From NCBI RefSeq assembly GCF_048403405.1, contig NZ_CP183129.1: a DNA stretch of 64,000 nt; one strand, 5' to 3'. Under the pieces are notes generated by a model that did not search any database, was not told where the DNA came from, and saw only the letters and a list, made by a program, of their open reading frames with translations. The position numbers were made by a program, and so were the translations under genes. Origin of the DNA: Escherichia coli. GTDB lineage: Bacteria > Pseudomonadota > Gammaproteobacteria > Enterobacterales > Enterobacteriaceae. Positions 7,799 through 30,977 of this stretch are shown here, in pieces; the first letter of the stretch is position 1, and each line of letters begins with the position of its first letter.

Positions 7799-9175
7799 TT
7801 ATTGCTGCCAACCGCCACCAAGTGCGGTATATAAAGAAATTTCGTTAACCTGACGGGCATAATTCAGGTCAAGTAAAGTTTGTCGGGTTGCAAATAAAGA
7901 ACGTTCGGCATCCAGCACTTCCAGATAACTGACTGCGCCGTGCTGATATAATGCCCGCGCCCGTTGCAAAGTAATTTGCAGCGATGCCAGATAACGCTGC
8001 TGGGCGCTAATTTGATCGTTCAGGCTTTGACGTAATGCCAGCGCATCTGCCACTTCTTTAAAGGCATTCTGGATTTTCTGTTCATAATTCACCACCGACT
8101 GCTGCTGGCGAATTTCGGCGATATCCAGATTGGCCTGGTTGCGTCCGGCATTAAAAATGGGGATCTCAATTTTGGGAATAAAATTCCACATCCCGCTGCT
8201 GGCGTTAAATAAGGACGACAGATCGCTGCTGGCGGTCGATATTCCGCTGGTCAGACTGATAGACGGGAAAAATGCCGCGCGTGCAGCGCCAATATTGGCA
8301 TTAGCCGCCATCAACGCGTGTTCAGCTTCCATAATATCCGGGCGCTGCAATAAGATTTGCGACGACAAGCCCGCCGGTAATTTAACGCTTTGCAGGCTGT
8401 CGCTGTTTACTGTTTGCGCTTGCGGCAGCTTGCCGTAGCTTCCCAGCAACAGTTGCAATGCATTATTCGCCTGCGCCAGTTCCCCCTGACGTTTAGCGAT
8501 GTCGCTGCGGGTACTTTCTATCACCCCGCGAGCCTGTTCCAGCGCCAGAACATTGCTGCTACCGGTCAACAGTTGTTTTTCGACAAACGCATATGACTGC
8601 TGATAATTACGCAGCGTTTCTTCGGCTATTTGCAATTGCGCATACGCCAGTTGCTGATTGAAATAGCTTTGCGCGACATTAGAAACCAGCAGAATATGCA
8701 CCGCGCGCTGGGCTTCCTCAGTGGCTAAATAATTTTGGCGCTCGGCTTCGCTCATGTTCTTTAAGCGACCGAAAAAATCGAGATCAAAGCTGGCGTTAAG
8801 GCCGGTCGAAAACTCCCGTGTCGTGGCGGTATTCCCTTTAAGATTACCGCTCCAGCTGCCGCTGCCCTCGCCATTGAGCTGTGGGTAGCGGTCGGCATCG
8901 GTCAGACGATATTGCGCCCGTGCCTCCTGCACTTTCAGCGTCGCCATGCGCAAATCCCGGTTATTCACCAGCGCCTCGCTAATCAGCGTCTTCACCTGAT
9001 TATCAATAAAAAAGGTGCGCCAGCCCGCGTTCTGGTAGTTATCTGCTGCGTTAACCAGGCCGTTCTGGCTGAGTGAGAACTGCTTCGGTACGGGCATTGC
9101 CGGACGCTGATAATCCGGTGCCAATGAACAACCGGTTAGCGCAAGGGCCACACAAAATGGCAGAAGTTTAGGCAC
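7799..9175 (-). CDS. cusC: Outer membrane factor CusC, 5' end and promoter replaced by IS26
   Basis: 458-aa ORF whose first codon (GTG, complement of 9173-9175) lies inside the IS26 terminal repeat; recalled native N-terminus MSPCKLLPFCV is here (V/M)PKLLPFCV. Confidence 0.85.
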   Translation of the reverse strand: MPKLLPFCVALALTGCSLAPDYQRPAMPVPKQFSLSQNGLVNAADNYQNAGWRTFFIDNQVKTLISEALVNNRDLRMATLKVQEARAQYRLTDADRYPQLNGEGSGSWSGNLKGNTATTREFSTGLNASFDLDFFGRLKNMSEAERQNYLATEEAQRAVHILLVSNVAQSYFNQQLAYAQLQIAEETLRNYQQSYAFVEKQLLTGSSNVLALEQARGVIESTRSDIAKRQGELAQANNALQLLLGSYGKLPQAQTVNSDSLQSVKLPAGLSSQILLQRPDIMEAEHALMAANANIGAARAAFFPSISLTSGISTASSDLSSLFNASSGMWNFIPKIEIPIFNAGRNQANLDIAEIRQQQSVVNYEQKIQNAFKEVADALALRQSLNDQISAQQRYLASLQITLQRARALYQHGAVSYLEVLDAERSLFATRQTLLDLNYARQVNEISLYTALGGGWQQ

Positions 9176-9990
9176 TGTTGCAAATAGTCGGTGGTGATAA
9201 ACTTATCATCCCCTTTTGCTGATGGAGCTGCACATGAACCCATTCAAAGGCCGGCATTTTCAGCGTGACATCATTCTGTGGGCCGTACGCTGGTACTGCA
9301 AATACGGCATCAGTTACCATGAGCTGCAGGAGATGCTGGCTGAACGCGGAGTGAATGTCGATCACTCCACGATTTACCGCTGGGTTCAGCGTTATGCGCC
9401 TGAAATGGAAAAACGGCTGCGCTGGTACTGGCGTAACCCTTCCGATCTTTGCCCGTGGCACATGGATGAAACCTACGTGAAGGTCAATGGCCGCTGGGCG
9501 TATCTGTACCGGGCCGTCGACAGCCGGGGCCGCACTGTCGATTTTTATCTCTCCTCCCGTCGTAACAGCAAAGCTGCATACCGGTTTCTGGGTAAAATCC
9601 TCAACAACGTGAAGAAGTGGCAGATCCCACGATTCATCAACACGGATAAAGCGCCCGCCTATGGTCGCGCGCTTGCTCTGCTCAAACGCGAAGGCCGGTG
9701 CCCGTCTGACGTTGAACACCGACAGATTAAGTACCGGAACAACGTGATTGAATGCGATCATGGCAAACTGAAACGGATAATCAACGCCACGCTGGGATTT
9801 AAATCCATGAAGACGGCTTACGCCACCATCAAAGGTATTGAGGTGATGCGTGCACTACGCAAAGGCCAGGCCTCAGCATTTTATTATGGTGATCCCCTGG
9901 GCGAAATGCGCCTGGTAAGCAGAGTTTTTGAAATGTAAGGCCTTTGAATAAGACAAAAGGCTGCCTCATCGCTAACTTTGCAACAGTGCC
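9171..9990 (+). mobile_element. IS26 (IS6 family), copy 1, 820 bp
   Basis: 14-bp terminal inverted repeats GGCACTGTTGCAAA at 9171-9184 and complement at 9977-9990; internal tnp26 ORF. Confidence 0.95.
9234..9938 (+). CDS. tnpA: IS26 transposase Tnp26 (R29H variant)
   Basis: 234-aa protein MNPFKGRHFQRDIILWAVRWYCKYGISY(H)ELQ... matches recalled Tnp26; codon 29 is CAT here and CGT in copy 2. Confidence 0.95.
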   Translation: MNPFKGRHFQRDIILWAVRWYCKYGISYHELQEMLAERGVNVDHSTIYRWVQRYAPEMEKRLRWYWRNPSDLCPWHMDETYVKVNGRWAYLYRAVDSRGRTVDFYLSSRRNSKAAYRFLGKILNNVKKWQIPRFINTDKAPAYGRALALLKREGRCPSDVEHRQIKYRNNVIECDHGKLKRIINATLGFKSMKTAYATIKGIEVMRALRKGQASAFYYGDPLGEMRLVSRVFEM

Positions 9991-10439
9991 AATTTTACGC
10001 CGTCGGCGGTACGCAGCCAGCGCGGGGATTTGAGTCCTTCCGTGAAATTCCAGACCAGCTCACACAGCAGCCCGGTCAGGGTTTGCTCCATTTTTGGTTC
10101 CGCCGGACGTTCCAGCAGAAGCTGGAGTAGTGCGAGGCAGTATTCGCACAAGGAATCAGGTTCGGAAATAAAGTGCTCTGGTGTGGCGGGAAGGGTATCC
10201 ACGGTCAGGCTTTCGGTAAGATGCGGTGGGATGGGGTCGTGTAGTGTGGGTTGCAGTAGCGCAAGAGCCGCGTGAAGCCGCCCGCAGAGCGCCAGTCGTA
10301 GCGCTGGATCGTCGGTTTCAATCAGGGTTTCGGCAAAGCGGGCGCAGTAGTCAGCAAGGACAGTGAAATCCGTGGTGGCATTGAAGGGGACGGTCAATAG
10401 ATCGAGTAAATCGCTGTCAGTGGTGAGGATTGTAGCCAT
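9972..10439 (-). CDS. Hypothetical protein, 3' end truncated by IS26 (last ~5 codons and stop supplied by IS26)
   Basis: 155-aa ORF with GGAGG 8 nt upstream of ATG; acidic, Leu-rich product; reading frame runs into the IS26 end at 9990. Confidence 0.5.
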   Translation of the reverse strand: MATILTTDSDLLDLLTVPFNATTDFTVLADYCARFAETLIETDDPALRLALCGRLHAALALLQPTLHDPIPPHLTESLTVDTLPATPEHFISEPDSLCEYCLALLQLLLERPAEPKMEQTLTGLLCELVWNFTEGLKSPRWLRTADGVKLALLQS

Positions 10440-10785
10440 AGGGCAACCTCCGATAAGTGGGTGTTCAAGCCACCACCGGAGAGGCTAATCTCGCGGGTGG
10501 TGGAACCGGGCAGGGTTAGCCTTACCAGCCTTATCGGACACTGGCGCGTCTTGCGACGCCCCCGCCCGGCCCACCATTGAGATGTAACCGTGCGAACAAC
10601 ACAAAAAAAGACGCTGGCGCGTCATGTGTCGCCGATAAGATTTCTTCAGGAGGCTAATCCCGACGCCTGATTTTGCAGGCGCGGGAGAAAGATACTGCGA
10701 TTGGTCATGAGTGGCAAGGGCTACATCATGTTTACCGACATCTCACGCAAAAATACCCTGATTATTAATAGCGAAAATCAGTTTC
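10440..10785 (-). other. GC-rich, repeat-rich non-coding region downstream of the RT gene; candidate structured ncRNA
   Basis: No ORF of 60 aa or more; hairpin ccaccacc/ggtggtgg (10481-10503); inverted pair ccgataag/cttatcgg (10451-10458, 10530-10537); direct repeats gaggctaatc (10490-10499 and 10651-10660) and ctggcgcgtc (10541-10550 and 10611-10620). Confidence 0.3.
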
Positions 10786-13700
10786 TTATTTTGGCGGTAG
10801 CTTTTTGCGGTTCTTTGCCAACTGGAATCCTTCAGGTAACGGTTTGAATTTATCGCCGCCTTTAGGCCAGCGTTTTGCCCTGCTCTGAAATGCCCTTAAC
10901 GAGTCGATATCCAGCGTTGCAGCGACCACAAAGTCATTATCACCGCCCTTCACACGAGCAATATCACGCATAAAGGGTTCTTTTGCCGGGGAACGTACGC
11001 GACTATCGCCGTATTTTCGGTTATTCACTAAAATAGTATAGGCATGAATATCCAGCGCTGCTGATTCAATCAACGATGCAAACGTATCTAGATCTTTATT
11101 CCAGCTCAATACCATTAATGCATCGAGTGCGCCCTGAAAACGGATCCTCGCTTTACTATTCTGGAGTTCAGAGCAAATCATAACGCCAAAATTGACGCCG
11201 TGATGAATATATACCGGCTTACGTTGTTTAACATTAAGTGTCGAATCCCAAGACTTACCATAAGTTGAAAATAATGCCTCATCTTCACCTACGGCGGGTT
11301 CCAGCTTGGGTTGCCATATTTTGACACTCGCTGGATAGCCGAGTCTGTTATCTGAAAGGACAAGTACGGCCTCACTCTTCAGTTGATTATCGTCTAAGTG
11401 GCGGTATTCTGTTCCCGCAATTAGACTGATACCCGCCGAACTCAAACGATCAGCAATACTGTTAACCCAGCGTAACGGGATTGAAAGCTCAGGGAATAAA
11501 ACATAATCAGGTTTAGGAGATAGTTTCAATGTTGCATTAACCAGTTCAGAAATCCGCTGGTACCTTGAACGGGACAAGTTAGATTTATTGCAGGCCATTT
11601 TAGCCCAGTCGTCCTCCTCTGTTTTAATGCTGGTTAGCGCAACGACAACTTTATGTTTCCTGTCTGTGCCAATATGAATGAATTTCTTAGGCCGAGCTTT
11701 TTTTGTCGCTTCATCTGAGTCCTGCTCCGATGCTAGCAACGTCGGTTTGATCCATACTCCGCGTAATGCTTGAGTATATTTTGCCCAAATGGTGGACGGT
11801 CTCTCATCTGGTTTTTTGTCGGATGTGGAGGGTAATCCAACACATTCGGGGGCCAGTTCTGATATTTCAGCGGGTGTTAAAGGACGTGTAGGGAAAATGT
11901 AAGGTAGGTAACTTTCGTTTTTACGATTTCCTTTAGCCACTTTTTCCAGTCGGGTATTCTTGGTTGATTTCAAAAATAGCTTAATAACGTCAATATCAAT
12001 AAGCGATGAGTCGCTCATTAATTTCAGTATTTTAACTTCTTTTTTACTATCACGCTGATTAACAAGTTTTTCTGCCGACTGACTCTTTACGATCTGTTTA
12101 TAAGGTTCCTTTGCTAAATCAGCTCGAGCTACCAATGGCGCTTTTAAATAAAAATCTGCTGAATCAAAGCGAAGATCCAGTAAATCCTTTAGATTCGTCA
12201 GACTTTGTGAAATATGATTAAAAAATGTATCCGCAAGGCACTCTTCTTTCTTTGAACGTTTATCAAGAAATAATCTGTCAGGACTGTAATATCGTGTCGC
12301 TGCATCAACAAATAGCCAGCTTAATGTGCCTTTTATACAGCGCCAAAGATCATTTACTGCTCGAGTTTTGCAACCATTTATATTCACTTCCTTACCTGAA
12401 GTAATCACCGATGCCAACAGGTTGATGGATTCGTAAGCTTTAAGTACAATTTTTTCCGCGTGCTGCCATTCATTCATACTGATAGCAAAGCCAAGCAGCC
12501 TTGGCAGATAACTAAAATGTGCAAATAGATTATCAGCCCTAAGAATATGGTTGTAGGCAAACTGATAAAACTCTTCCCGCTGTTCTTTCCATTCACTTGG
12601 AGGCAGATCTCGTGCCAGTGTTTCAACGTAGCGTAATTGCAGTGACCAGCCCAAACGACGAATGGTTAATCCATCCGCACGGCGCAGAGTATCGGCATTT
12701 TCACCTACACTACCGGCAGCGGAAAGGACTTTAGCTGCGGTGGAGTGTTCCAGTTGATCCGGTGAAGGCATCAAGCGGTGTTCACTAGAAAGCTCGTAGA
12801 TCTCCTTTTCGATACTGTCGAGCAGGTCTATTCCAGCCCTCCCTTGAAGCACGAAAAGTTTTTGCTTATCGGATTGTAACTGGATGGTGGTCTTACCCTG
12901 GAAATGCTCGCCCTGCTGTATTTGCCATATTTGTTTTTGCTCGTTTTTCAAATAAACGCAATCATTGCCAAGCCTATCTTGCAGCAATAACATAAATTCG
13001 TGATTATTAGTAATTGTCCCTGTATCGCGTATTACAAGGAACATATCATCGACATAACGACCGTAGTGAATTGGTGATAGTTTTTCAATGACTAATTTAT
13101 CCCAATGGTGTAGCAATATATTTGAAATGATCCGACTGGCTGTTAATCCAATGACCAGACCACCATTAATAACAGGTGTTTTGTACGCTATTTTCTTTCC
13201 AAATGCCGCTGCGCCGTCAGACCAGTGCTTTAAGAATACTGCTAACTGTGCAGTAAACGCTTTTTCATCCTCAGTCAGTTTTATGTTTAGTGTGTTATAG
13301 AGATCATCAGAGGTTATAGCCAGTGGATCAATAAAATGATAGTAACTTTTTAAATCCAGTGAGGCGGCGATAATGTCACGATCTTTTTCCAACTCGTCAC
13401 GTATAGCTTTTAAGCCATCACCACGCCATTTTTGGTAGGGCTGGAAGTAGGGGCTAAAAGAACCCACGGCACTGATATGGAATGGATTATCCTGCTCATT
13501 GCTAAATAATTCATCATTACGAATACGCTTTAGCCGCGCGCCATAGCAACAGTTATCTAAGCTGGCATCAAATTTATGCCCGACCATGTTAATCCATAGT
13601 GCAGAGATAATGTGACTATCAACCGGGAAGTCACCAATAATACGAAACTCTGGTATCAGATCAAAATTATTAAATAAATGGTCGGCTGCTCGTTTAGGAT

Positions 13701-13995
13701 TAGAAAAGTGGACGTGTCCATTTTGGGATTCATGTTTTTTCTTTGTGGTTAATTTTTTCGGTAACAAACGAAATTTGCCAATCAACTTCTTATTGCTACT
13801 GAATCCATCTTCGCTCTGCAAAAGATCTAAGAGTTTTTGCAGGTTTTCAAGTAATTCCTGCTCATACTCGGCAAATTTGATAGCAACAGGAAATGTATTC
13901 TCAAAGAAGCTATCGGCTTTTGCTTTCCGGTAAGCGACCAGAAGGTCTTCAATCGTCAGATCATCCCAGCCAGTGAAAATTGCCTGATATGTCAT
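10786..13995 (-). CDS. Defence-associated reverse transcriptase fused to C-terminal nitrilase (CN-hydrolase) domain, DRT type 1-like (UG1-like)
   Basis: 1069-aa ORF with AAGGA RBS; RT motifs LDLKSYYHFID, GGLVIGLTASRIISNILL, YVDD (complement of 13045-13056); nitrilase triad context FPELS, VKIWQPK, GVMICSEL (Cys codon complement of 11173-11175). Confidence 0.75.
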   Translation of the reverse strand: MTYQAIFTGWDDLTIEDLLVAYRKAKADSFFENTFPVAIKFAEYEQELLENLQKLLDLLQSEDGFSSNKKLIGKFRLLPKKLTTKKKHESQNGHVHFSNPKRAADHLFNNFDLIPEFRIIGDFPVDSHIISALWINMVGHKFDASLDNCCYGARLKRIRNDELFSNEQDNPFHISAVGSFSPYFQPYQKWRGDGLKAIRDELEKDRDIIAASLDLKSYYHFIDPLAITSDDLYNTLNIKLTEDEKAFTAQLAVFLKHWSDGAAAFGKKIAYKTPVINGGLVIGLTASRIISNILLHHWDKLVIEKLSPIHYGRYVDDMFLVIRDTGTITNNHEFMLLLQDRLGNDCVYLKNEQKQIWQIQQGEHFQGKTTIQLQSDKQKLFVLQGRAGIDLLDSIEKEIYELSSEHRLMPSPDQLEHSTAAKVLSAAGSVGENADTLRRADGLTIRRLGWSLQLRYVETLARDLPPSEWKEQREEFYQFAYNHILRADNLFAHFSYLPRLLGFAISMNEWQHAEKIVLKAYESINLLASVITSGKEVNINGCKTRAVNDLWRCIKGTLSWLFVDAATRYYSPDRLFLDKRSKKEECLADTFFNHISQSLTNLKDLLDLRFDSADFYLKAPLVARADLAKEPYKQIVKSQSAEKLVNQRDSKKEVKILKLMSDSSLIDIDVIKLFLKSTKNTRLEKVAKGNRKNESYLPYIFPTRPLTPAEISELAPECVGLPSTSDKKPDERPSTIWAKYTQALRGVWIKPTLLASEQDSDEATKKARPKKFIHIGTDRKHKVVVALTSIKTEEDDWAKMACNKSNLSRSRYQRISELVNATLKLSPKPDYVLFPELSIPLRWVNSIADRLSSAGISLIAGTEYRHLDDNQLKSEAVLVLSDNRLGYPASVKIWQPKLEPAVGEDEALFSTYGKSWDSTLNVKQRKPVYIHHGVNFGVMICSELQNSKARIRFQGALDALMVLSWNKDLDTFASLIESAALDIHAYTILVNNRKYGDSRVRSPAKEPFMRDIARVKGGDNDFVVAATLDIDSLRAFQSRAKRWPKGGDKFKPLPEGFQLAKNRKKLPPK

Positions 13996-14289
13996 GCGTT
14001 ATCGTCCTTAGATTACAGTCTGTACAGAATTAGCCAGCCGTTTCATGCCCGAAGGGGGGCTCTTGACACCAGTAATCCATCAGTGAGGCTGGCAATAATT
14101 TTGATTTGTATCCATGTTACACGCTCCCCGCAACCAGTCCGAGCATATATTTGTCACATTTTTCCCGAAAGTGATTAAGTTTGAATTTTTTGTTTAATGT
14201 CGATTTTTAGTCGACAAAATGAGGAATAAGTAAACTATTTCTTGCTGTGGCGTATCCCTGAATCTACACTGGTTTAAATATTTGTACTA
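13996..14289. promoter_or_regulatory. Divergent promoter region between RT gene and abiEi, with palindrome gtcgatttttagtcgac (14200-14216)
   Basis: AT-rich 294-bp spacer between divergently oriented genes; inverted repeat is a candidate AbiEi operator. Confidence 0.35.
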
Positions 14290-15093
14290 ATGTCTATTCA
14301 GAGGCGACAGTTGCCAAACTATCTAAACTGGCTGATGCAGCACACGCTACCCGGCCAGGTGCTGCTCCAGTCATGGCTTACCCGCAACGGCATAGATCGT
14401 AAGCTCTCTTATCTCTATGTGAAGAATGGCTGGCTCAGGCGGATCGCTCACGGCGTATACTGCCGGACGGGCCGTGAGCCGGATTGGGTAGACGCGGTTT
14501 ACTGCCTTCAAACACAGTGGGAAAAGCCTGTTCGGGTGGCGGGGCTAACCAGCCTTGCGCTTCAGGGCCATGCGCACTATACCGAACCGGGTAAGCCGCA
14601 GGTCTGGCTCGCGCTTCCGGCTTACGTTAAGCTGCCGGGATGGTTTGCTGCCTTCGAACAATCTGCAACATTTATCACGCTGTATACATCGGGGCTTACC
14701 GTAGATGTAACGTCATTGACTACGGAACTGAAAATTGGCGACCGCCAGTTAGCAGGCAGTGCCCCGGAACTGGCCGCGTATGAGATCGCCTGCGGCGTTC
14801 CTTCGTTGATATCGTTCGAACATGCCGATGCTCTGTTTCAGGGGATGAATCTTCTCAGCCCACGCAAATTGCAGGCACTGCTTCGCGCCAGCCATTCGGT
14901 TAAAACCAACCGGGTGATGCTTTACCTTGCCCGGCGTAATGGACACCCTTATTTTCAGTATATTGATCAAAGCGGTATAGAAACAGGTACGGGAAAGCGG
15001 CAAATCATACCCGGCGGCTGGCTGGAGCCGGATTATCAAATTACTGTTCCACGCGCATTTAAACCGGAAGGAGTCGAAGATGGATCTGCGTGA
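14290..15093 (+). CDS. abiEi: AbiEi-family antitoxin/transcriptional regulator (type IV TA / abortive infection)
   Basis: 267-aa ORF, N-terminal motif ...GWLRRIAHGVY typical of AbiEi; overlaps downstream AbiEii gene by 14 nt. Confidence 0.7.
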   Translation: MSIQRRQLPNYLNWLMQHTLPGQVLLQSWLTRNGIDRKLSYLYVKNGWLRRIAHGVYCRTGREPDWVDAVYCLQTQWEKPVRVAGLTSLALQGHAHYTEPGKPQVWLALPAYVKLPGWFAAFEQSATFITLYTSGLTVDVTSLTTELKIGDRQLAGSAPELAAYEIACGVPSLISFEHADALFQGMNLLSPRKLQALLRASHSVKTNRVMLYLARRNGHPYFQYIDQSGIETGTGKRQIIPGGWLEPDYQITVPRAFKPEGVEDGSA

Positions 15094-16000
15094 TAGCTAT
15101 GCCCGGCAGGTCAAACTGTTGATGGCCGCTCTGCCGTATGTGGCGAAGGAGTCCTGTTTCGCGTTGAAAGGCGGCACCGCAATCAATTTGTTTGTGCAGG
15201 ATTTTCCCCGTCTGTCGGTGGATATTGATCTGGCGTACAAGAGCTTTGCGGATCGCGATACTGATTTGGCGGCTATCAACGACGCTTTGAAGAGGATTAC
15301 TGCATCGCTGAACGGCAGACCGGGGATCACCGCGATTCGGCAGGAAAATAAAGCGGATGAAAAGCGCATCATTGTGAATACCGCTGATGCAAAGATTAAG
15401 ATCGAGGTTAGCCCGGTCTGGCGCGGGCTGTTGTTGCCTCCGGCAGAAATGCCTGTGTGCGAACGTGTGGAAATGGAGTATGGCTTCACCACCATGAGTG
15501 TCGTCTCGCTGGCGGATCTTTATGGCGGTAAAATCTGCGCTGCGCTTGATCGTCAGCACCCGCGCGATCTGTTTGATGTGCTGAATATGCTGGAGAAACC
15601 GGGACTGATGCGGGAGATCTTTGACGGTTTTCTTTGTTATCTGGCAGGCCATCCCCGCCCCATCGCCGAGTTGCTGGCTCCAAACTGGGATACAGAGCGG
15701 ATCGCCACGTTGTACGCGCAGGAATTTTCGGGGATGACTCAGCAGGAAACGTCGCTGGAATCGCTGCTGTCAGTAACGACTTTGCTGCCGCAGGCGTTGA
15801 AGTCACATCTTACGGATCTGGATCGCGAGTTCTTGCTCAGTTTTAAGCAAAACAGCCCTGACTGGTCGCGGTATCGCTATCCTGAAATTCAGCATCTTCC
15901 GGCTATTCGCTGGAAGCAACGTAATCTGGCGGTGCTGAAAGATAAAAATCCGGCGAAGTATGTGGCGGCGGTGAATAAGCTAGAGAGGGTGCTGGCGTAA
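15080..16000 (+). CDS. abiEii: AbiEii/AbiGii-family nucleotidyltransferase toxin
   Basis: 306-aa ORF with SD GGAAGGA; motif ALKGGTAINLF...RLSVDIDLAY characteristic of AbiEii (DUF1814). Confidence 0.75.
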   Translation: MDLRDSYARQVKLLMAALPYVAKESCFALKGGTAINLFVQDFPRLSVDIDLAYKSFADRDTDLAAINDALKRITASLNGRPGITAIRQENKADEKRIIVNTADAKIKIEVSPVWRGLLLPPAEMPVCERVEMEYGFTTMSVVSLADLYGGKICAALDRQHPRDLFDVLNMLEKPGLMREIFDGFLCYLAGHPRPIAELLAPNWDTERIATLYAQEFSGMTQQETSLESLLSVTTLLPQALKSHLTDLDREFLLSFKQNSPDWSRYRYPEIQHLPAIRWKQRNLAVLKDKNPAKYVAAVNKLERVLA

Positions 16001-16364
16001 TCAATAGACCAGCATTAATCACGGATGATTACCAATCAGACAGATATGGTTAAATCATCGAATTCATAATTAATACTTTTTCTTACGCCGCTGAACAGCT
16101 TGAAAAGGATACATATTTTAAATATCAGTGAAGTGGACAGTTTATTGCCGTTATTAATAGAGATGGAGGAATAAATACGCGTATTCTACTATTGCAACAA
16201 AAACAACGATGATGATCAGTTTTCATAATGAAGTAACCTGACAGATATAAAAATGTTGATTGAGGCTCAATGCCCGGATGAAGGTTGTCGAGGGAGCCAG
16301 GTGGTTTTTTCTTTTGGGTGATCTCCATTGCTGGATAGTCCCCTCTTTCTCGCTCAAAGCAGAC

Positions 16365-16689
16365 TGTACTGCACCCATTTTGTTGGACGATGAAATGGAA
16401 TAGCCCCTAATATGTCAAAGCCAAAATACCCTTTTGAAAAGCGCCTTGAAGTCGTGAATCACTACTTCACAACTGATGATGGTTACAGGATCATCTCGGC
16501 ACGTTTTGGTGTCCCCCGAACCCAGGTCAGGACATGGGTTGCCCTCTATGAAAAACATGGAGAAAAAGGTTTAATTCCCAAACCTAAAGGCGTTAGTGCT
16601 GATCCAGAGTTGCGTATTAAGGTCGTGAAAGCTGTGATCGAGCAGCACATGTCCCTTAATCAGGCTGCTGCTCACTTTATGCTTGCTGG
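16365..16689 (+). mobile_element. IS150 (IS3 family) left-end fragment, truncated by IS26
   Basis: Begins TGTACTGCACCCATTTTGTTGGACG; encodes the N-terminal ~90 aa of InsJ/OrfA (MSKPKYPFEKRLEVVNHYFTTDDGYRIISARFGVP...) ending at the IS26 boundary. Confidence 0.8.
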
Positions 16690-17509
16690 GGCACTGTTGC
16701 AAATAGTCGGTGGTGATAAACTTATCATCCCCTTTTGCTGATGGAGCTGCACATGAACCCATTCAAAGGCCGGCATTTTCAGCGTGACATCATTCTGTGG
16801 GCCGTACGCTGGTACTGCAAATACGGCATCAGTTACCGTGAGCTGCAGGAGATGCTGGCTGAACGCGGAGTGAATGTCGATCACTCCACGATTTACCGCT
16901 GGGTTCAGCGTTATGCGCCTGAAATGGAAAAACGGCTGCGCTGGTACTGGCGTAACCCTTCCGATCTTTGCCCGTGGCACATGGATGAAACCTACGTGAA
17001 GGTCAATGGCCGCTGGGCGTATCTGTACCGGGCCGTCGACAGCCGGGGCCGCACTGTCGATTTTTATCTCTCCTCCCGTCGTAACAGCAAAGCTGCATAC
17101 CGGTTTCTGGGTAAAATCCTCAACAACGTGAAGAAGTGGCAGATCCCACGATTCATCAACACGGATAAAGCGCCCGCCTATGGTCGCGCGCTTGCTCTGC
17201 TCAAACGCGAAGGCCGGTGCCCGTCTGACGTTGAACACCGACAGATTAAGTACCGGAACAACGTGATTGAATGCGATCATGGCAAACTGAAACGGATAAT
17301 CAACGCCACGCTGGGATTTAAATCCATGAAGACGGCTTACGCCACCATCAAAGGTATTGAGGTGATGCGTGCACTACGCAAAGGCCAGGCCTCAGCATTT
17401 TATTATGGTGATCCCCTGGGCGAAATGCGCCTGGTAAGCAGAGTTTTTGAAATGTAAGGCCTTTGAATAAGACAAAAGGCTGCCTCATCGCTAACTTTGC
17501 AACAGTGCC
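16690..17509 (+). mobile_element. IS26, copy 2, 820 bp, same orientation as copy 1
   Basis: Terminal repeats GGCACTGTTGCAAA at 16690-16703 and complement at 17496-17509. Confidence 0.95.
16753..17457 (+). CDS. tnpA: IS26 transposase Tnp26
   Basis: 234-aa protein matching recalled Tnp26 (R29). Confidence 0.95.
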   Translation: MNPFKGRHFQRDIILWAVRWYCKYGISYRELQEMLAERGVNVDHSTIYRWVQRYAPEMEKRLRWYWRNPSDLCPWHMDETYVKVNGRWAYLYRAVDSRGRTVDFYLSSRRNSKAAYRFLGKILNNVKKWQIPRFINTDKAPAYGRALALLKREGRCPSDVEHRQIKYRNNVIECDHGKLKRIINATLGFKSMKTAYATIKGIEVMRALRKGQASAFYYGDPLGEMRLVSRVFEM

Positions 17510-19543
17510 AAACCGTTAGCGATTATGGTTCCGGCGTGGAATGAAACGGGCGTCATCGGCAATATGGCCGAGCTGGCGGCGACCACGCTCGACTATGAAA
17601 ACTATCATATCTTTGTTGGCACCTACCCCAACGACCCCGATACACAGCGTGATGTTGACGAAGTGTGCGCTCGCTTCCCGAACGTGCATAAGGTAGTCTG
17701 CGCGCGTCCTGGCCCCACCAGCAAAGCCGACTGCCTGAACAACGTGCTGGACGCCATCACCCAGTTTGAGCGTAGCGCCAATTTCGCTTTTGCTGGTTTT
17801 ATTCTGCATGACGCCGAAGACGTAATTTCACCGATGGAATTGCGTCTGTTCAACTATCTGGTCGAGCGTAAAGATCTGATTCAGATCCCGGTGTATCCGT
17901 TCGAACGCGAATGGACGCACTTCACCAGCATGACTTACATTGATGAGTTTTCAGAACTGCATGGCAAAGATGTTCCGGTGCGTGAAGCCCTCGCCGGACA
18001 AGTGCCCAGCGCAGGCGTCGGTACCTGTTTCAGCCGCCGCGCCGTGACCGCACTGTTAGCTGACGGTGACGGTATTGCTTTCGACGTGCAGAGTCTTACT
18101 GAAGATTACGACATTGGTTTCCGCCTGAAAGAAAAAGGTATGACGGAAATTTTTGTCCGTTTTCCGGTGGTGGACGAAGCCAAAGAACGCGAGCAGCGTA
18201 AATTTTTACAGCACGCGCGGACGTCAAACATGATCTGCATGCGCGAATATTTCCCTGATACCTTTTCGACTGCGGTTCGACAAAAATCTCGCTGGATCAT
18301 CGGCATTGTTTTCCAGGGCTTTAAAACCCACAAATGGACCTCCAGCCTGACGCTGAACTACTTTCTCTGGCGCGACCGCAAAGGGGCAATCAGTAACTTT
18401 GTCAGCTTTCTCGCGATGCTGGTGATGATCCAGCTTCTGCTGTTACTGGCGTATGAAAGTTTGTGGCCCGATGCCTGGCATTTCCTTTCTATTTTCAGCG
18501 GCAGCGCATGGTTAATGACCCTGCTGTGGCTAAACTTTGGTTTGATGGTTAACCGCATCGTGCAGCGGGTGATTTTTGTCACTGGCTACTACGGTCTGAC
18601 GCAGGGGCTGCTATCTGTCCTGCGTCTTTTCTGGGGCAACCTGATTAACTTCATGGCCAACTGGCGCGCGTTAAAACAGGTACTTCAACACGGCGATCCA
18701 CGTCGTGTCGCGTGGGATAAAACAACGCATGACTTCCCCAGCGTGACTGGCGATACCCGCTCGTTGCGCCCGTTAGGCCAAATTCTGCTGGAAAATCAGG
18801 TCATCACTGAAGAACAACTCGATACAGCACTGCGTAATCGCGTCGAAGGTCTACGCCTGGGCGGTTCAATGCTGATGCAGGGGCTGATTAGCGCCGAACA
18901 GCTGGCACAGGCGCTGGCAGAGCAAAACGGCGTGGCGTGGGAATCCATCGACGCCTGGCAGATCCCGTCCTCGCTGATTGCCGAAATGCCGGCCTCCGTG
19001 GCGCTGCATTATGCAGTGCTGCCGCTGCGTCTGGAAAATGATGAGTTAATTGTCGGCAGTGAAGATGGTATTGACCCGGTTTCGCTGGCGGCCCTGACGC
19101 GTAAAGTCGGACGCAAAGTGCGTTACGTCATTGTTCTGCGGGGACAAATTGTCACGGGGTTACGTCACTGGTATGCACGCCGACGCGGTCACGATCCGCG
19201 GGCAATGTTGTACAATGCGATTCAGCATCAGTGGCTCACGGAACAGCAGGCCGGTGAAATCTGGCGGCAATATGTGCCGCATCAGTTCCTGTTCGCCGAA
19301 ATACTGACCACGCTCGGTCATATTAATCGTTCAGCAATTAACGTGTTGTTATTGCGCCATGAACGCAGTTCTCTGCCGCTCGGCAAGTTTTTGGTCACCG
19401 AAGGCGTTATCAGCCAGGAAACGTTGGATCGCGTCCTGACAATTCAACGCGAATTACAAGTTTCGATGCAATCACTATTACTCAAAGCAGGTTTAAACAC
19501 AGAACAGGTTGCGCAACTGGAGTCCGAAAATGAAGGAGAATAA
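17510..19543 (+). pseudogene. nfrB: nfrB (c-di-GMP-controlled glycosyltransferase, phage N4 adsorption protein B), 5'-truncated by IS26
   Basis: Native reading frame begins directly at the IS26 right end (KPLAIMVPAWNETGVIGN...); ~70 N-terminal codons of the recalled 745-aa NfrB are missing; longest ORF 17525-19543. Confidence 0.85.
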
Positions 19544-24459: not shown

Positions 24460-24701
24460 GTTGATACCGCAATGCGGTGTAATCGCGTGAATTATACGGT
24501 CAACCCTTGCTGAGTCAATGGCTTTTGATCTGGTTGCTGAACAAGTGAACGACCGCGTCTGATTTTCTGATTTATTTCGCTATAGCGGCAAACAAACGTA
24601 CACCGCTGCGCGTCTGAATCAAGAAAACCCGTATTTTCATGTATCAAAGTACAATTTCCCGCCCTAACGGAAAATTGTCCGATCCTATGAGACTGGTAAC
24701 T

Positions 24702-25334
24702 ATGAAACCAACGTCGGTGATCATTATGGATACTCATCCTATCATCAGAATGTCTATTGAAGTTCTGTTGCAAAAAAACAGTGAATTGCAAATTGTCCTG
24801 AAAACGGATGATTATCGCATAACCATCGATTATCTCCGAACCCGTCCTGTTGATTTAATCATTATGGATATAGACTTGCCCGGTACAGACGGTTTTACCT
24901 TCCTGAAAAGGATCAAACAAATCCAGAGTACAGTGAAAGTATTATTTTTATCATCGAAATCAGAATGCTTTTATGCTGGCAGAGCGATACAAGCTGGTGC
25001 TAACGGCTTTGTCAGTAAATGCAATGATCAGAATGATATTTTTCATGCCGTTCAGATGATCCTCTCCGGATACACTTTTTTTCCCAGCGAAACGCTCAAC
25101 TATATAAAAAGCAATAAATGTAGCACGAATAGTTCAACGATCACTGTGCTATCTAATCGTGAAGTGACCATATTACGTTATCTGGTTAGCGGATTATCCA
25201 ATAAAGAAATTGCCGATAAGTTATTACTTAGCAATAAAACAGTTAGTGCGCATAAATCTAATATTTATGGCAAGCTAGGTTTGCATTCAATTGTAGAGCT
25301 TATCGACTATGCCAAATTATATGAATTAATATAA
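24702..25334 (+). CDS. fimZ: LuxR-family response regulator FimZ
   Basis: 210-aa protein from MKPTSVIIMDTHPIIRMSIEVLL; receiver plus LuxR HTH. Confidence 0.9.
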   Translation: MKPTSVIIMDTHPIIRMSIEVLLQKNSELQIVLKTDDYRITIDYLRTRPVDLIIMDIDLPGTDGFTFLKRIKQIQSTVKVLFLSSKSECFYAGRAIQAGANGFVSKCNDQNDIFHAVQMILSGYTFFPSETLNYIKSNKCSTNSSTITVLSNREVTILRYLVSGLSNKEIADKLLLSNKTVSAHKSNIYGKLGLHSIVELIDYAKLYELI

Positions 25335-25336
25335 TA

Positions 25337-25852
25337 TTAATTATAATTGATCATAAATATCGCATCCGCTTTCGCCACACCTGGCTGAACACCACTGGCT
25401 AACGCTCGATAATTGGCAAAAAAGTTTAGTGTGACATTGCCATTTGCATCTACTTCCTCAGTCGGGCTCGCCTCCCCCAGTGCGAGCCGGGAGCGATCGC
25501 TATTACGTAATTCGATGGCGACGGTTTGTGCCATTGCGGGATCATCCAGAGCCAGCAGGTTGGCATCAGATGCCGGCGTTCCCGTAAATAAAATTGCAAC
25601 TGAACCCGGAGGACATCCCTCCAGCCGCAGGCTAAAAGGGACGAGTGCCGTGGTATCGCCAGCGCTCAGTAATTGTGTCGTAGGCCATCTGCCTAAATCT
25701 ACTGTCTTATCCTTATCCGCTGTGTTTACGGTACAGGAGAAATCAACAACGTTACCGTGCAAATTGATATTAATCGTTCCTAAAGGGTCAACTGCCCATC
25801 CACTGGAACTCCACAGTAGCCCGCAGAAACAGCTAAAGAGTACTCTTCTCAT
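25337..25852 (-). CDS. sfmF: Fimbrial-like protein SfmF
   Basis: 171-aa protein from MRRVLFSCFCGLLWSSSGWA within the longer ORF 25337-26047. Confidence 0.85.
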   Translation of the reverse strand: MRRVLFSCFCGLLWSSSGWAVDPLGTININLHGNVVDFSCTVNTADKDKTVDLGRWPTTQLLSAGDTTALVPFSLRLEGCPPGSVAILFTGTPASDANLLALDDPAMAQTVAIELRNSDRSRLALGEASPTEEVDANGNVTLNFFANYRALASGVQPGVAKADAIFMINYN

Positions 25853-25862
25853 TCTCCGTACC

Positions 25863-26870
25863 TCATTGATAATCGACGCGTAAATACCCCAGCGCGCTAA
25901 ACGGCCCTTCGGTCGGTTTTTGACCGGTAATACTGATAGGCCAGGCGCGAAGTGTGACATTGGCTGCCGCAGCTGCATCCAGACGGAAAGGAATAACGCT
26001 ATTGAGATCGTTAGGCGTGATCGGCGTATCGTTCTGATCGGCGACAATAAAACCTAAATCCTGATTGTCCGACACCATCGCCTGACCAGAAACGGCACTG
26101 GCTTCCAGACGCATTGTTAAATAAGCCTGCGCAGCAACATTCGTACATTTGATCGCAATATTCCTGGTTTGCGGCATGACACCATTAGGTCGATTCCCCG
26201 GCCCTGCCGCACTAAATAACGATGCACCGATATCACCAAAATCAAATTCAACAATTTGCCCGGCATTTAATTCGCAGTTTTGCGGTACTTCAACCCGGCC
26301 ACCAAAACTAATGGTATAAACAGGTGTAACCAACGGATCGTAAGGCGTTGATGTCACATACACGGTAAACATCACCTGTCTGGGGATCTCCACCATGTTA
26401 ATAAAGGGACGAATAACCTTTAAACGAAATATTAAACGAGAATCCATCACCCCGAATGGAAGGTTTTGCGAAACGTTAGGATCTGTTCCCATCCGAATAT
26501 AATTTTGCGGGGGGAACTGAATATCCATCACACTATCAACCAGACTCATCGCACCTAATAGATAATCATTTAATTGCATATATTTATAATTATCGATAGT
26601 TTCCTGAACAATAAAGTTAGTGACATAACTACGGTATGTATAATTCACCAGCGTGCCGGGTGGACAAATTGCTGATACACCTACCCAGCCGGATTTTTCC
26701 GGTAAAACAACAATCTGCCCTGGCTGGTTATTGGTGCTATTAAAGACATTTGAGAGATCATAGTGTTCATCTTCTGCTACGCCAGTACTATTTGCACAAA
26801 CAGTAGCCCAGGATATGTTTGCCAGACACAAACATGCCATCGCCAATAATAATCTGCAGATTATCTTCAT
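25863..26870 (-). CDS. sfmH: Fimbrial adhesin-like protein SfmH
   Basis: 335-aa ORF with signal peptide; position in sfm operon; exact start not verified. Confidence 0.85.
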   Translation of the reverse strand: MKIICRLLLAMACLCLANISWATVCANSTGVAEDEHYDLSNVFNSTNNQPGQIVVLPEKSGWVGVSAICPPGTLVNYTYRSYVTNFIVQETIDNYKYMQLNDYLLGAMSLVDSVMDIQFPPQNYIRMGTDPNVSQNLPFGVMDSRLIFRLKVIRPFINMVEIPRQVMFTVYVTSTPYDPLVTPVYTISFGGRVEVPQNCELNAGQIVEFDFGDIGASLFSAAGPGNRPNGVMPQTRNIAIKCTNVAAQAYLTMRLEASAVSGQAMVSDNQDLGFIVADQNDTPITPNDLNSVIPFRLDAAAAANVTLRAWPISITGQKPTEGPFSALGYLRVDYQ

Positions 26871-26882
26871 TGATAATTTCCT

Positions 26883-29492
26883 TTATGAGCCAGAATGTGT
26901 GCAAACTGCCGAAATAACAGTGACGGCTTGCTGTAAGCTTTGCTTCGGCAATACATAGTGCGCAATGCAGCGTGAGTTCGCGCCGTCTCCCCACTGAACC
27001 AGTAATTCACCAGACAATGGCGCACCACTTAAATAAACTTGCCCGTCATCACCCACCATACTGGTTATTCCGGTACTGTTTTCCCGTACCAGTGATCCAA
27101 ACGGCACCGGTTTTCCGCCCTGGGTAACGGTAATGAGCGCCCGCACGCCTATGCGGGTGTCAAAATTGGCACGAACCAACGCGCCTTGCGTCGGCACAAC
27201 GCTGCTAATATTTTTTTCAACATCGATGGAATTCCCCATCGTATTGGTATCAAGCGCGATACGGTTATACCGATAAACCGTGGCATACGGCATCACCGCA
27301 TAGCCGCGCCAGTCGGTTAAAATTCCAGTTTGATTTTCAATGCGTACACCGCCTGCGCCTGGCGCTTTAATCAAAACATTGGTATCCCCTAAAGGCTGGC
27401 TCAGCGTTATGCCATTTTCATGTCCGACCACACCGCCAGACAGCTGCCAGTTAACGTCATGTTGATCGCGGTCGTAGTTATACCCGACCCCCAGCGTACC
27501 GTAAGCGGCCTGCCAGTTTGCCGTGGCGCTGCCCGTATACCCATTATTCGAGGTATCGCCCTGGCTTACGTGATAACTCAGGTTGTGGCCTTCCAGTAAG
27601 GTCCCACCAACGCCTGCCAGCCAGCTATTTTGCCCGTTGCTGTTACGGTTGGCGTTAAAGGAGGCATAAGCGCGGTCGAGCGCATTTTCCCGGGTGTAGC
27701 GACGTTTGGTCAAAACATTGAAAGGCACTGAAACATTAAGTCCGACAATACGTTCGTTATCGGGGATCCCTACAGATTCATTCCACGAAAATGAGAGTGA
27801 ATAACTGATGCCAACCCAGCTGCTGGTATACCCCACCTGATACCAGGTATCTGAATCCGAAGTATTCCAGTATTTTTGATGGGTACCAGAAATATAAAGC
27901 GAGCCAAAGTCATTAAGTGATTGTGAAATATTTAACTGTAAACGGTCTTTACGACTAAAGCGTAAATTGTGGTAATTCACGATTATCGGTTCATCGCGAT
28001 GCTCACCGTCATAATCGTAATCATATTCGTACCCCTCCATTCGACGATACGCAACATCATCAAGGGTATAAAAACCTTGTGTCGAATAGCGGTAACCCAT
28101 TAACTGAAAATTGGTGCCGAAAGTGTTCATTGATTTCGCATAGAGGAAGCGAATGGAATCCCCCTCATGACGACTGTCGTCGGCTAACTGACTGCGCGCA
28201 TGCGTTACATCCAGCGACACTGCGCCCCAGTTCCCGAGGTTGCGCCCCAACCCTAACAAAAAGGCGGTGTAATTTGCAGATAATTGCGTCCCGCCGTAGG
28301 CAGTAAATTCCTGTGGTAAACCGCCGAGTGCCGTGCCCTGAAAAAAGAAAGGCGACGATTGCTGACTATTACCGCTACGAAAATCACCCGCCGTCAGGTC
28401 AAATTTGAAACGCCCTTCGCGTTGTAAAATTGGCACTGTCGAATACGGAATAGTGTAATTCTGCTGATTACCATCGCGCTCGTCGATGGTGACGTCCAGA
28501 TCGCCATTTGAAGATGTCGGGTGTAAATCTGTAATTTCAAAAGCGCCGGGGGAAACATAGCTTTGATAGATAATAAAACCATTTTGCCGAATCGTTAGCT
28601 GGGCCGCCGTACGGGCAATCCCACGTACCGTTGGGGCAAACCCTTGCTGGCTATCAGGATACATATTATCGGAAGAATAAAGCCGTACACCTCGAAATCC
28701 GACGCCATCGAAAATATCACTCCCTGTATTACCGTCTCCCATTACCAGTTCACTTTTCAGCGGAATAATGGCGCGCTGTACCCAGGTGCCAATATTATTC
28801 CACTGTTCTGAATGATATCCATTTCCGCGAAAATAGTTCCAGGAACCATTGTTGCGTAAACGCCACGGGCCAATATTAATCCCGCTGAGTTCACTAAAAA
28901 AATAGCTATCGTTACCATTACCTCTGTTACCGGTGAAATTATAATTCAGGAGTAAAGCAGGAATACCTTCATCCCACTCTTCAGGCGGAATGTAACCGTG
29001 AGCGCTACTCAACAACGCTATCTGAGGAATAGTGATGTTCAGGCGCATCGCTGCAAAATCAAAGTTAATTGTGGCATCAGGTACAGCTTTCAGTAAATTA
29101 ATGCATTTATTATTTTGCTGCTGGGCTAACTCGGGGAATGCACTGCTATTAAGGCCAATTCGTTCAAGGAGTGCCTGATTAAAACAAGGCATTAACCCAC
29201 CTGATTTATCACCTGTATTTACTGTCGTCGATTCAAATACGATATCCTGTGAACCAATGAACTCATCATTACGCCAGAGATCCACCCGATACACACCCGC
29301 AGGTTGATGATTACCTCTCTCAAAGCGCGATAAATCAGCAACGGATGTGCCATTCTCTAATAAAAATGCCGGGTTGAAATAACTTTCCGCATAGCTTAAA
29401 AAGGAGGGTAAAATGGCAAGAGATGAATAACAAATTCCGGCCAGACACCAGCTATACCTCTGCGGAATATCCGTAGTAGTGGGTATTTTCAT
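26883..29492 (-). CDS. sfmD: Fimbrial usher protein SfmD
   Basis: 869-aa ORF typical of outer membrane ushers. Confidence 0.9.
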
Positions 29493-29522
29493 AATTAGCT
29501 CTGATATTGTCAGATGATTCGG

Positions 29523-30215
29523 TTAGTTTAAGTTCACTTCTCTGACCGGGGTTACTGAACCATAATCATTAACGGTCTGAAATTTCAGCTTTCCCTGCAC
29601 TCCTGAGGGTAAGGGAATTTGTGAATTAACTCTGGGTGCAGCCATAGCATTCCCCAGTTTTTGGCTGCCCACTTGCAAGTTAACCAGGGTGACATAAAAA
29701 GGTGATGGATTATGAACATTGATATAGTTACCGGATCGCGAAAACTTGAGTGTGTCCGGCGCTTCTGCGGGTAATTCTTGTAATTGAATTGGACGGAGAA
29801 ATAACTTCATGCGCGATAAAATCGCCAGTTGCAAAACATTCCTGCCGTTCAATGCATTTTTATCTACCGAAGGGATCGTCTTAACATTCATCCAGAACAG
29901 AGACTCACGATCTGCCGCCAGCGGTGGACCGGTGTAAATAATACGCAAGGTATTTTCGCTTTTGGGTTCACTAACAAACAGTGGCGGTGTAATGATGAAT
30001 GACTTTTCTTTTACACCGCTGCTGTTTTCAATCCACGAATTGACCAGAAAGCGCTCATTGGTATGGCTATTTCTAATCCATACCGCAGTCTGTTTAGCAT
30101 CAGCGGGATAAATAATACGCGTGGCACCTAATGCGATCCCTCCGGCAGCATGGGCGCTGGCCGAAATGATTAAATAAAATATAATGAGCATCAATAACTT
30201 TATTTTAGTCATCAT
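29523..30215 (-). CDS. sfmC: Periplasmic fimbrial chaperone SfmC
   Basis: 230-aa ORF with signal peptide, PapD-like. Confidence 0.9.
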
Positions 30216-30434
30216 AGTTAATACGCCTTGTGTATTCCTGACGGCAAAAATAAGGAGTATAAAGAAATGATTGCTTTGGTTTCTTACAACACATCATTCC
30301 CTTTTCATTTAATAAAGCGGCATGATACAAAGTGAACATGATTTCGATTTACATTGCCACCATACCGCTTCAGACAACCGGTACATTACTTTGTTATAAG
30401 ACGTGATATATAATTCAAAACAACGTGGTTTTGA

Positions 30435-30977
30435 TTATTCGTATCTCATAATAAAAGTCGCGTCAGCATTTGCTTGCCCTGCTGATGCACTTGTACCGGT
30501 GCCTTTATAACGTGCAGAAAAATGAAGAACGTTGGTCCCGGGGATCAAGTTCTGGTTGGTTGAGAAGCTATTCCCATCAGGTTTGAGAATTGCGGATGTA
30601 TTATCAAGTATTTCAATACCGACACCCGTTGCTGTTGTTGTATTAGTACTGGATGCAATGGCCAATAAATTATCATTGATTGCATCCGCCTGACCAGAAA
30701 ATGCAACGGCAGCATTAGCGGCAACGACAGGATCGCAGTCGTTCAACTGTATAGTGAATGGAATTAATGCAGAGGTATTACCAACAGCATTGAAAATATC
30801 GGTACGATATTGACCGAGTGTGACAACCTGGTCTGCCGAGTCAGTATTCACTGAACAGGCAGCATTCACCAGTTCGCCTTCAAAGTGAATTGTACCGCCA
30901 TCTACAACGGCAGCATAACTACCCGTAGCGGCGAATAGTGCGGCGGCCAGCGCAGACGAAATAAATCTTAATTTCAT
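30435..30977 (-). CDS. sfmA: Type 1-like fimbrial major subunit SfmA
   Basis: 180-aa protein from [22 protein letters not shown] within ORF 30435-31010. Confidence 0.9.

Follow-up and report, generated by a model that had tools for sequence, protein, structure and literature searches.

Is the 6.7-kb segment held between two IS26 copies in an Escherichia coli chromosome a single unit, or was it put together from parts with separate histories? We addressed this question for a 64,000-nucleotide (nt) stretch of contig NZ_CP183129.1 (assembly GCF_048403405.1), which we refer to in full as the window. The segment at issue, positions 9991-16689 (hereafter the cargo), carries a UG5-large reverse transcriptase (RT)-nitrilase gene, an AbiE toxin-antitoxin pair and a stump of a P4-like satellite (Table 1). 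Our analysis indicates that the cargo very probably consists of independent modules of a decayed P4-like satellite islet, and that its steps in GC content are the joins between those modules.

The original prediction, made by eye, was that the RT gene is strongly AT-rich whereas the truncated gene to its left, a structured spacer and much of the abiE region are GC-rich. We measured GC in sliding windows and found values of 0.57-0.58 at 10001-10750, 0.38-0.46 over 10751-14250, 0.53-0.54 at 14251-16000, and 0.39-0.42 at 15751-16500. A likelihood segmentation divided the cargo into four blocks (9991-10685, GC 0.58; 10686-14327, 0.42; 14328-15997, 0.54; and 15998-16689, 0.41), with maximum-likelihood change points at 10686, 14328, and 15998 and log-likelihood ratios of 40, 45, and 32, respectively; the top value among 300 shuffles was 17.6. 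The AT-richness of the RT gene was borne out: its open reading frame (ORF) falls within the lowest 0.8% by GC of all 3.2-kb stretches in the window, and its z-scores against 26 core genes, drawn from the window and from the source locus described below, are -3.0 for GC and -3.05 for GC at third codon positions (GC3). Meanwhile, abiE and the left module are host-like (z of 0 to +0.8), so that they are GC-rich relative to the RT gene but not in absolute terms. Uniform GC and codon usage across the cargo would have spoken for a single origin; GC3 proved not to be uniform once codon position and amino-acid content were controlled, and a chi-square comparison of the RT gene with abiE (p = 1.7e-16) places the difference at synonymous sites. 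The pattern is therefore real and non-random, yet unexceptional for E. coli.

We traced the cargo to a chromosomal locus elsewhere in the species. Several E. coli chromosomes carry positions 9991-16364 at 100% identity, immediately downstream of a tRNA-Thr gene that neighbors proA and that we take, from this position, to be thrW. The source order, as annotated in the reference locus L001, is tRNA-Thr, an integrase pseudogene, a gene for a 156-amino-acid (aa) protein, an "ash" ORF, the 1069-aa ORF, abiEi, abiEii, a ykgR fragment and a LysR-family gene; a helix-turn-helix (HTH) pseudogene is also annotated between the tRNA-Thr and RT genes. None of the P4-like core genes psu, sid, delta, or primase is annotated in this locus and the integrase is a pseudogene, so the islet is a satellite remnant rather than a satellite.

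To determine how the modules are distributed, we searched 5,426 complete E. coli genomes with each of them separately, as the original prediction had proposed, and their histories turned out to differ. The RT gene is present in 260 genomes and is near-clonal, with all but one copy at least 99% identical; no diverged RT alleles (for example, of the E101 type) were found in these genomes, even in the "distant" mode of blastn. AbiE is present in 832 genomes and is polymorphic, mostly at 95-99% identity. The left flank (9991-10718) is found in 807 genomes at a coverage of at least 80%, with 257 records at 99% identity or more and ~590 at 80-90%. In ~577 genomes, the place of the RT gene between the same flanks is taken by a type I restriction locus, hsdRMS, of the kind found in strain JJ1886, mostly at 99% identity or more. 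Since the 260 and ~577 genomes together approximate the 832 that carry abiE, there are two main alleles, which differ between the isrK promoter and abiE.

A comparison with JJ1886 delimits the modules independently of composition. Its tRNA-Thr locus reads 156-aa gene, ash, hsdS-hsdM-hsdR, abiEi, abiEii, and its homology to the cargo is limited to 9991-10718 (88.7%) and 14087-16001 (94.2%), with the first 150 nt after the restart at 14087 at 76% only. On the left, the alignment with JJ1886, as well as that with locus L010 (see below), turns conserved exactly at a promoter-like site. On the right, JJ1886 homology stops at 16001 and the perfect chromosomal match stops at 16364. Measured from the corresponding GC change points, the three homology breakpoints (10718, ~14087, and 16001) are offset by 32, 241, and 3 nt; the second offset is the largest because the AT-rich region upstream of abiE is itself part of the abiE module. 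Divergence is also unequal between neighboring modules. Among RT-bearing strains, the RT gene differs by 2 mismatches in 3210 nt (0.06%), whereas abiEi differs by 28-39 mismatches in 804 nt (3.5-5%), a contrast that points to recombination within the antitoxin gene or to diversifying selection on it. In comparisons with loci L004 and L005, the abiEi differences are concentrated at 14387-14986. Hence, the proposal that the cargo was built from modules of different origin holds, each module having its own distribution and divergence pattern. It was likewise correct that the cargo is no ancestral operon: the RT gene and abiE are divergently transcribed and so never formed one operon.

The leftmost module is the satellite backbone, comprising the 156-aa gene and the C4 and isrK RNAs, with a host-like GC content and relatives in Enterobacterales. 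The 156-aa gene, the truncated gene of the original prediction, has lost its terminal 22 nt to IS26. It has no match in Pfam, PHROG, or NCBIfam, and has 564 homologs, the listed ones with a species name all belonging to Enterobacterales; some homologs are called as a longer protein fused to a PF10554 Ash domain. The structured spacer is, from its RNA matches, the immunity region of a P4-like satellite: C4 and isrK both score above their Rfam gathering thresholds and follow the promoter-like site in the expected order. It differs from a complete P4-like immunity region in that the element here is a stump, without psu, sid, delta, or primase annotated. We considered C4 and isrK as non-coding RNA templates associated with the RT and rejected this, since the flank that contains them occurs at 89% identity in RT-less, JJ1886-type genomes. 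They are leftovers of satellite immunity control.

The second module is a stand-alone UG5-large RT-nitrilase, AT-rich and found across Gammaproteobacteria. The protein matches PADLOC model PDLC03780 (RT_UG5-nitrilase) with 1034 bits, residues 1-1068 aligning to positions 9-901 of the 907-position profile. Pfam gave no match at E <= 0.01 and NCBIfam only sub-threshold retron and Drt matches, so PADLOC was needed for the identification. The RT active site is YVDD (residues 314-317). The PADLOC RTasNitrilase model covers residues 783-1058 (147 bits), within which E836, K897, C941, and E943 are the predicted catalytic nitrilase residues, assigned by motif. The protein thus resembles the UG5-large "RT-nitrilase + TM" system (Rousset 2022) in its full-length model match, its YVDD motif and its nitrilase K-C-E residues. 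It is of the same class as DRT1, a UG1 RT-nitrilase, with the same domain order and a similar nitrilase C terminus (residues 940-1057 match DRT1 structure 9yfd, E = 1e-6), but Drt1a, the best PADLOC match to any UG/DRT group outside the UG5 and RT-associated nitrilase models, is distant at 89 bits.

The setting of the RT gene agrees in part with that of published relatives. The "RT-nitrilase + TM" systems of P4-like satellites also lie near other defence genes in satellite-derived DNA. In P4-like elements, a hotspot between psu and int, next to cos, has been described in which unrelated systems replace one another, including a UG5 RT-nitrilase (PMC9122126). In contrast, the window RT gene lies outside such a hotspot, between the isrK/C4 promoter and abiE, with no psu annotated. 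The second difference concerns a membrane protein. The P4-borne UG5 system of E. coli E101 needed a membrane partner (PMC9122126), whereas no such partner was seen by eye among the ORFs that flank the window RT gene (the longest being 48 aa downstream and 31 aa upstream). An adjacent membrane-protein gene is optional in the UG5-large class (31/299 members), and DRT11, a UG5-large protein of Sinorhizobium meliloti, is sufficient without one (bioRxiv 10.64898/2025.12.16.694600); like the window RT gene, DRT11 is found beside an AbiEii-type pair.

By analogy with DRT1, DRT5L, and DRT11, the window RT probably makes untemplated DNA attached to itself, which would control a nitrilase effector that aborts infection. 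DRT5L, of the UG5-large type, performs template-free, protein-primed synthesis, and the DNA adducts of DRT1 both enable and restrain its nitrilase, leading to abortive infection (PMC13275509). The priming serine of DRT1 is reported to be non-conserved in other class 3 RTs (PMC13275509).

The third module is the AbiE pair, divergent from the RT gene, host-like in GC and with close relatives in enterobacteria. All three Pfam models (PF17194, PF11459, and PF08843) are over their cut-offs, the two genes overlap by 14 nt, and the AbiEii translation shows a GG...DIDL nucleotidyltransferase motif. AbiE systems are type IV toxin-antitoxin, abortive-infection systems in which AbiEi, with a winged-helix N-terminal domain and a C-terminal domain, precedes a DUF1814/AbiEii nucleotidyltransferase in one operon; AbiEii is the toxin and AbiEi is both antitoxin and autorepressor. 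The window pair has the same domains, operon order, overlap and motif, with nothing notably different, and would by analogy work in the same way. It belongs to an enterobacterial chromosomal clade (84-95% aa identity among genera). Upstream lies a conserved palindrome (TGTCGA-N7-TCGACA, 14198-14216) that E. coli and Serratia share and of which a metagenome-assembled genome of Enterobacteriaceae (MAG, locus L016) has a slightly degenerate version; it is a candidate AbiEi operator. The fourth module is the AT-rich tail together with the IS150 stub. An orfA-like ORF (16412-16741) that begins in the stub has HTH_28 and HTH_Tnp_1 matches and a weak IS3 transposase match, and plasmids that match here have the annotation "IS3-like element IS150 family transposase".

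To better understand where the RT module came from, we compared its relatives and their neighborhoods. RT relatives are 76-82% identical in other Enterobacterales and ~70% identical across many marine Gammaproteobacteria, whereas for AbiEii all close relatives (84-95%) belong to Enterobacterales and the next ones drop to ~55% identity. The RT gene has a GC content of 0.31-0.48 in every host examined, with flanks of 0.38-0.66. We then inspected 36 informative, non-independent loci, with the RT gene at ~8001 or 10001 in each listed locus. In half of them (18/36: L007, L010, L011, L013, L014, L017-L019, L024, L026, L031, L033, L037, L039, L043, and L047-L049), RT is the last gene of a same-strand row that reads (HTH_26)-hsdR-hsdM-hsdS, followed by KwaA-KwaB (the Kiwa genes, confirmed by PADLOC), by a ~590-aa SMC-like ATPase or by nothing, and then RT. 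Where we inspected the genes one by one, the gaps are 0-13 nt; they reach 92 nt in L010 and ~1.4-1.5 kb in L017 and L043. The restriction genes fall into two families: family A has an HsdR of ~1040 aa and HsdM proteins 81-96% identical among loci, and family B has an HsdR of ~800 aa and an HsdM only ~27% identical to that of family A. Because the two families are unrelated to each other, the RT gene appears to have become associated with restriction genes more than once, independently. In Vibrio anguillarum (L012, 1-11204), the RT gene overlaps by 4 nt the SMC-like ATPase gene that precedes it; the same island encodes an integrase, AlpA, a DUF927 protein and an AbiEi/AbiEii pair, so that AbiE and RT co-occur, ~6 kb apart, in a distant genus.

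Two observations tie this block to the E. coli locus. The first is locus L010, whose RT is 82% identical to that of the window: it has abiEi', hsdRMS, RT and the isrK/C4/156-aa backbone in one row, so that both E. coli cassettes are present in tandem. The second is a short, frameshifted remnant just upstream of the window RT gene, which can be aligned with the 3' end of kwaB from Salmonella, Yersinia and Citrobacter; more degenerate kwaB tails are found in Serratia marcescens (L015) and in L016. From these alignments, the remnant appears to mark an old deletion. The RT block thus most likely descends from an hsdRMS-kwaAB-RT operon beside abiE, and we infer the following order of events. An hsdR-hsdM-hsdS-kwaA-kwaB-RT operon would have come to lie beside abiE in an enterobacterial P4-like element. 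An old deletion would then have removed the restriction and Kiwa genes, sparing the last ~17 codons of kwaB. Such old deletions could have left RT-only, hsdRMS-RT, and hsdRMS-only derivatives, of which E. coli would keep the first and the last as its tRNA-Thr alleles. The decayed P4-like islet sits beside the tRNA-Thr gene in part of the E. coli population, and IS26 would have relocated a piece of it, by insertion of a translocatable unit or by recombination, together with an adjacent deletion.

Several points weigh against this history, and three other explanations need to be considered. One is that the GC pattern is ordinary within-genome noise devoid of historical meaning. It is true that 43% of same-size windows in the 64-kb stretch have a first split at least as strong, and that bigger shifts occur elsewhere in the window (change points 31309 and 60924); GC heterogeneity of this size is common here, so composition alone is no proof of separate origins. 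We nevertheless consider noise a highly improbable explanation, since the change points fall close to independently determined homology breakpoints, the shifts exceed those of all 300 shuffles, the difference lies at synonymous sites in a gene at the very bottom of the GC range, and the modules are distributed differently within E. coli. It is also improbable, if less so, that the cargo is one long-linked unit in which the RT gene is intrinsically AT-rich, for example through H-NS silencing of a toxic gene or low expression. Such linkage would fit the conserved abiE/RT/backbone order of E. coli, Serratia, and L016, an AT-richness of the RT gene that persists in hosts of 58-66% GC and could reflect selection rather than recent import, and the adjacency of a UG5-large RT to an AbiEii-like pair in Sinorhizobium. 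The age of this neighborhood counts against a simple modular reading, and RT and AbiE may be linked to some degree by function or selection. Because Serratia has the same order, the order is old and the mosaic was not assembled during IS26 capture. Yet abiE is near the RT gene in 5/36 loci as against 18/36 for hsdRMS, and more than three times as many E. coli genomes carry abiE as RT. The neighbors have diverged unequally, not only within E. coli but also between the window and Serratia (74% nt identity for RT and backbone, 85% for abiE), and in the marine hosts examined the GC content of the RT gene is near that of its flanks, as expected of a native composition.

The remaining alternative accepts the modules and concerns the origin of the two E. 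coli alleles, which it explains by the replacement of cassettes in a satellite hotspot rather than by alternative deletions of an hsdRMS-Kiwa-RT island. The exchange of unrelated systems, a UG5 RT-nitrilase among them, in the psu-int hotspot of P4-like elements (PMC9122126) offers a precedent, the breakpoints are fixed (at the isrK promoter to the left and in the region upstream of abiE to the right), and between the two alleles the flanks are 5-11% divergent. Moreover, the deletion scenario rests on ~50 nt of remnant and on synteny, and independent insertion events at a single slot could account for both alleles. We downgraded a simple RT/hsdRMS hotspot swap in view of the tandem arrangement in L010, between the same kinds of flanks, and of the kwaB scar, found upstream of RT in the window, Serratia, and L016. 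The JJ1886 hsdRMS is of family A, which precedes RT in 14 other loci, and the slot is not the psu-int hotspot (no psu is annotated in L001, L003, L004, or L005). Replacement is therefore unlikely, although it is the strongest of the three competitors. Two further points should be set against the history proposed here: the membrane partner that the tested P4-borne UG5 system required is absent beside the window RT gene, and the window shows the fragment at its new place, whether copied or moved from the tRNA-Thr locus.

The final step of the proposed history concerns IS26. The window is E. coli chromosome, with ybdG, pheP, and cusA-cusB-cusF-cusC to the left of the cargo and nfrB', nfrA, ybcH, and envY to the right. 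The left IS26 replaces the first four codons of cusC (7799-9175), which reads VPKLLPF... where the start of K-12 CusC is MSPCKLLPF; the right IS26 has removed ~70 N-terminal codons of nfrB (17510-19543). Between cusC and nfrB, where cusRS lies in K-12, cusRS is absent. This strain is probably affected both in its control of copper/silver efflux and in the adsorption of phage N4. The IS26 copies differ by one nt (A at 9319, G at 16838) and are thus not fresh duplicates of each other. IS26 units are flanked by an 8-bp duplication after simple transposition, but not after targeted or deletion events. We found no 8-bp target-site duplication at any IS26 junction (the flanking 8-mers GAAGTTTA / AATTTTAC / CTTGCTGG / AAACCGTT are all different), which would fit an adjacent deletion of cusRS.

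The IS26-cargo-IS26 arrangement is absent from the 5,426 complete RefSeq E. coli genomes and from PLSDB plasmids, and an exact look-up returned no record of a chimeric 155-aa protein that spans an IS26 junction. The structure resembles an IS26 pseudo-compound transposon or translocatable unit in that a passenger segment lies between two direct IS26 copies. It differs in that the passenger is chromosomal defence DNA rather than resistance genes, that there is no 8-bp duplication, and that the insertion is tied to the loss of cusRS and of the ends of cusC and nfrB. Two E. coli "plasmid" records that match the cargo, NZ_CP146678 and CP088862, were rejected as the source of the window, neither having the IS26 structure. 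NZ_CP146678.1 (L002, 64 kb) and CP088862.1 (L006, 35 kb) both have prophage genes beside the tRNA-Thr islet, the former also with the flanking chromosomal genes pao and ecp; both look like excised or misassembled chromosomal segments, not true plasmids.

Table 1. Features of the cargo and of the IS26 copies that frame it (window coordinates; a dot denotes no strand)
Feature	Position	Strand	GC	GC3	Evidence or remark
IS26, left copy	9171..9990	+			820 nt; 14-nt terminal inverted repeats GGCACTGTTGCAAA; IS26 annotation in matching plasmids
3'-truncated 156-aa gene	9991..10439	-	0.568		Matches WP_000201184 in L001
Spacer	10440-10785		0.538		
C4-type antisense RNA	10493..10581	-			Rfam RF01695, 71.1 bits (gathering 45), E = 1e-12, full model length
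isrK-like small RNA	10604-10682	-			RF01394, 68.8 bits (gathering 50)
Terminator-like hairpin of isrK	10610-10623	-			
c4-a1b1 target element	10643-10695	-			RF03163, 43.8 bits, slightly below gathering 46.7; overlaps isrK
Promoter-like site upstream of isrK/C4	10689..10717	-			TTGCCA-17-TATCTT; left homology breakpoint of RT module
UG5-large RT-nitrilase fusion gene	10786..13995	-	0.418	0.383	1069 aa; PADLOC RT_UG5-nitrilase; AT-rich block
RT-abiEi intergenic region	13996-14289		0.398		
kwaB (Kiwa) 3'-end remnant, frameshifted	14009..14056	-			Last ~17 codons; PFGHE, 2-nt gap, RLANSVQ
AT-rich region upstream of abiE	14087..14289	.			Common to all alleles; alignable with Serratia L015 and MAG L016
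abiEi, antitoxin/regulator gene	14290..15093	+	0.542	0.563	Pfam AbiEi_3_N and AbiEi_3; PADLOC AbiEi, 264 bits
abiEii, nucleotidyltransferase toxin gene	15080..16000	+	0.533	0.625	Pfam AbiEii, 122.6 bits; PADLOC AbiEii, 385 bits
AT-rich non-coding tail	16001..16364	.	0.376		Fragment annotated as ykgR remnant in L001
IS150 (IS3-family) 5' stub	16365..16689	+	0.458		Cut by right IS26
IS26, right copy	16690..17509	+			Direct orientation relative to left copy; cuts nfrB ~70 codons in

Elsewhere in the window, we noted two compositional features. An Rhs ORF (60359-63988, minus strand) with RHS repeats and an RHS core has a GC-rich body (~0.64), and GC is ~0.39 from ~60000 to 60924; the change point inside this ORF is the strongest compositional step of the window. 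The region 24500-31300 is low in GC (0.37-0.43) and holds a LuxR-type response regulator gene and a fimbrial usher cluster. Its step at 31309 is sharp and lies ~2 kb from the fimbrial-usher gene, in a compositional island unrelated to the cargo.

All components of the cargo and its frame belong to described families (UG5-large, AbiE, the P4-like immunity region, and the IS26 pseudo-compound structure), and mosaic defence islets are well documented (PMC9122126, PMC10121019). Particular to the window are the IS26-borne relocation and an RT gene that lies outside the psu-int hotspot and has no membrane partner. Of all the features, the hsdRMS-(Kiwa or ATPase)-RT block alone might be new. The relatives of the window RT mostly end hsdRMS operons, a context that we did not find described in the UG5-large literature searched, nor did we find there anything specific that links Kiwa or type I restriction to UG5. 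A bolder possibility, suggested by synteny and in our view quite doubtful, is that the RTs of this UG5 clade, encoded last in type I restriction operons, are coupled to these in function and act as second-line abortive effectors. The RT would then be co-transcribed with HsdRMS and perhaps restrained or triggered by it, on the model of the PrrC anticodon nuclease tied to EcoprrI, and the window RT would be an uncoupled survivor.

We suggest that the cargo exemplifies how defence islets are stitched from independently moving modules, with GC steps that here mark the seams. IS26, best known for mobilizing resistance genes, appears in this strain to have relocated a two-system defence fragment within a chromosome, at the cost of cusRS, of the first codons of cusC, and of the 5' part of nfrB, a phage adsorption protein gene. 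For the RT family itself, the repeated occurrence of an hsdRMS-(Kiwa or ATPase)-RT block could help in designing experiments that look for the trigger of UG5 RT-nitrilases.

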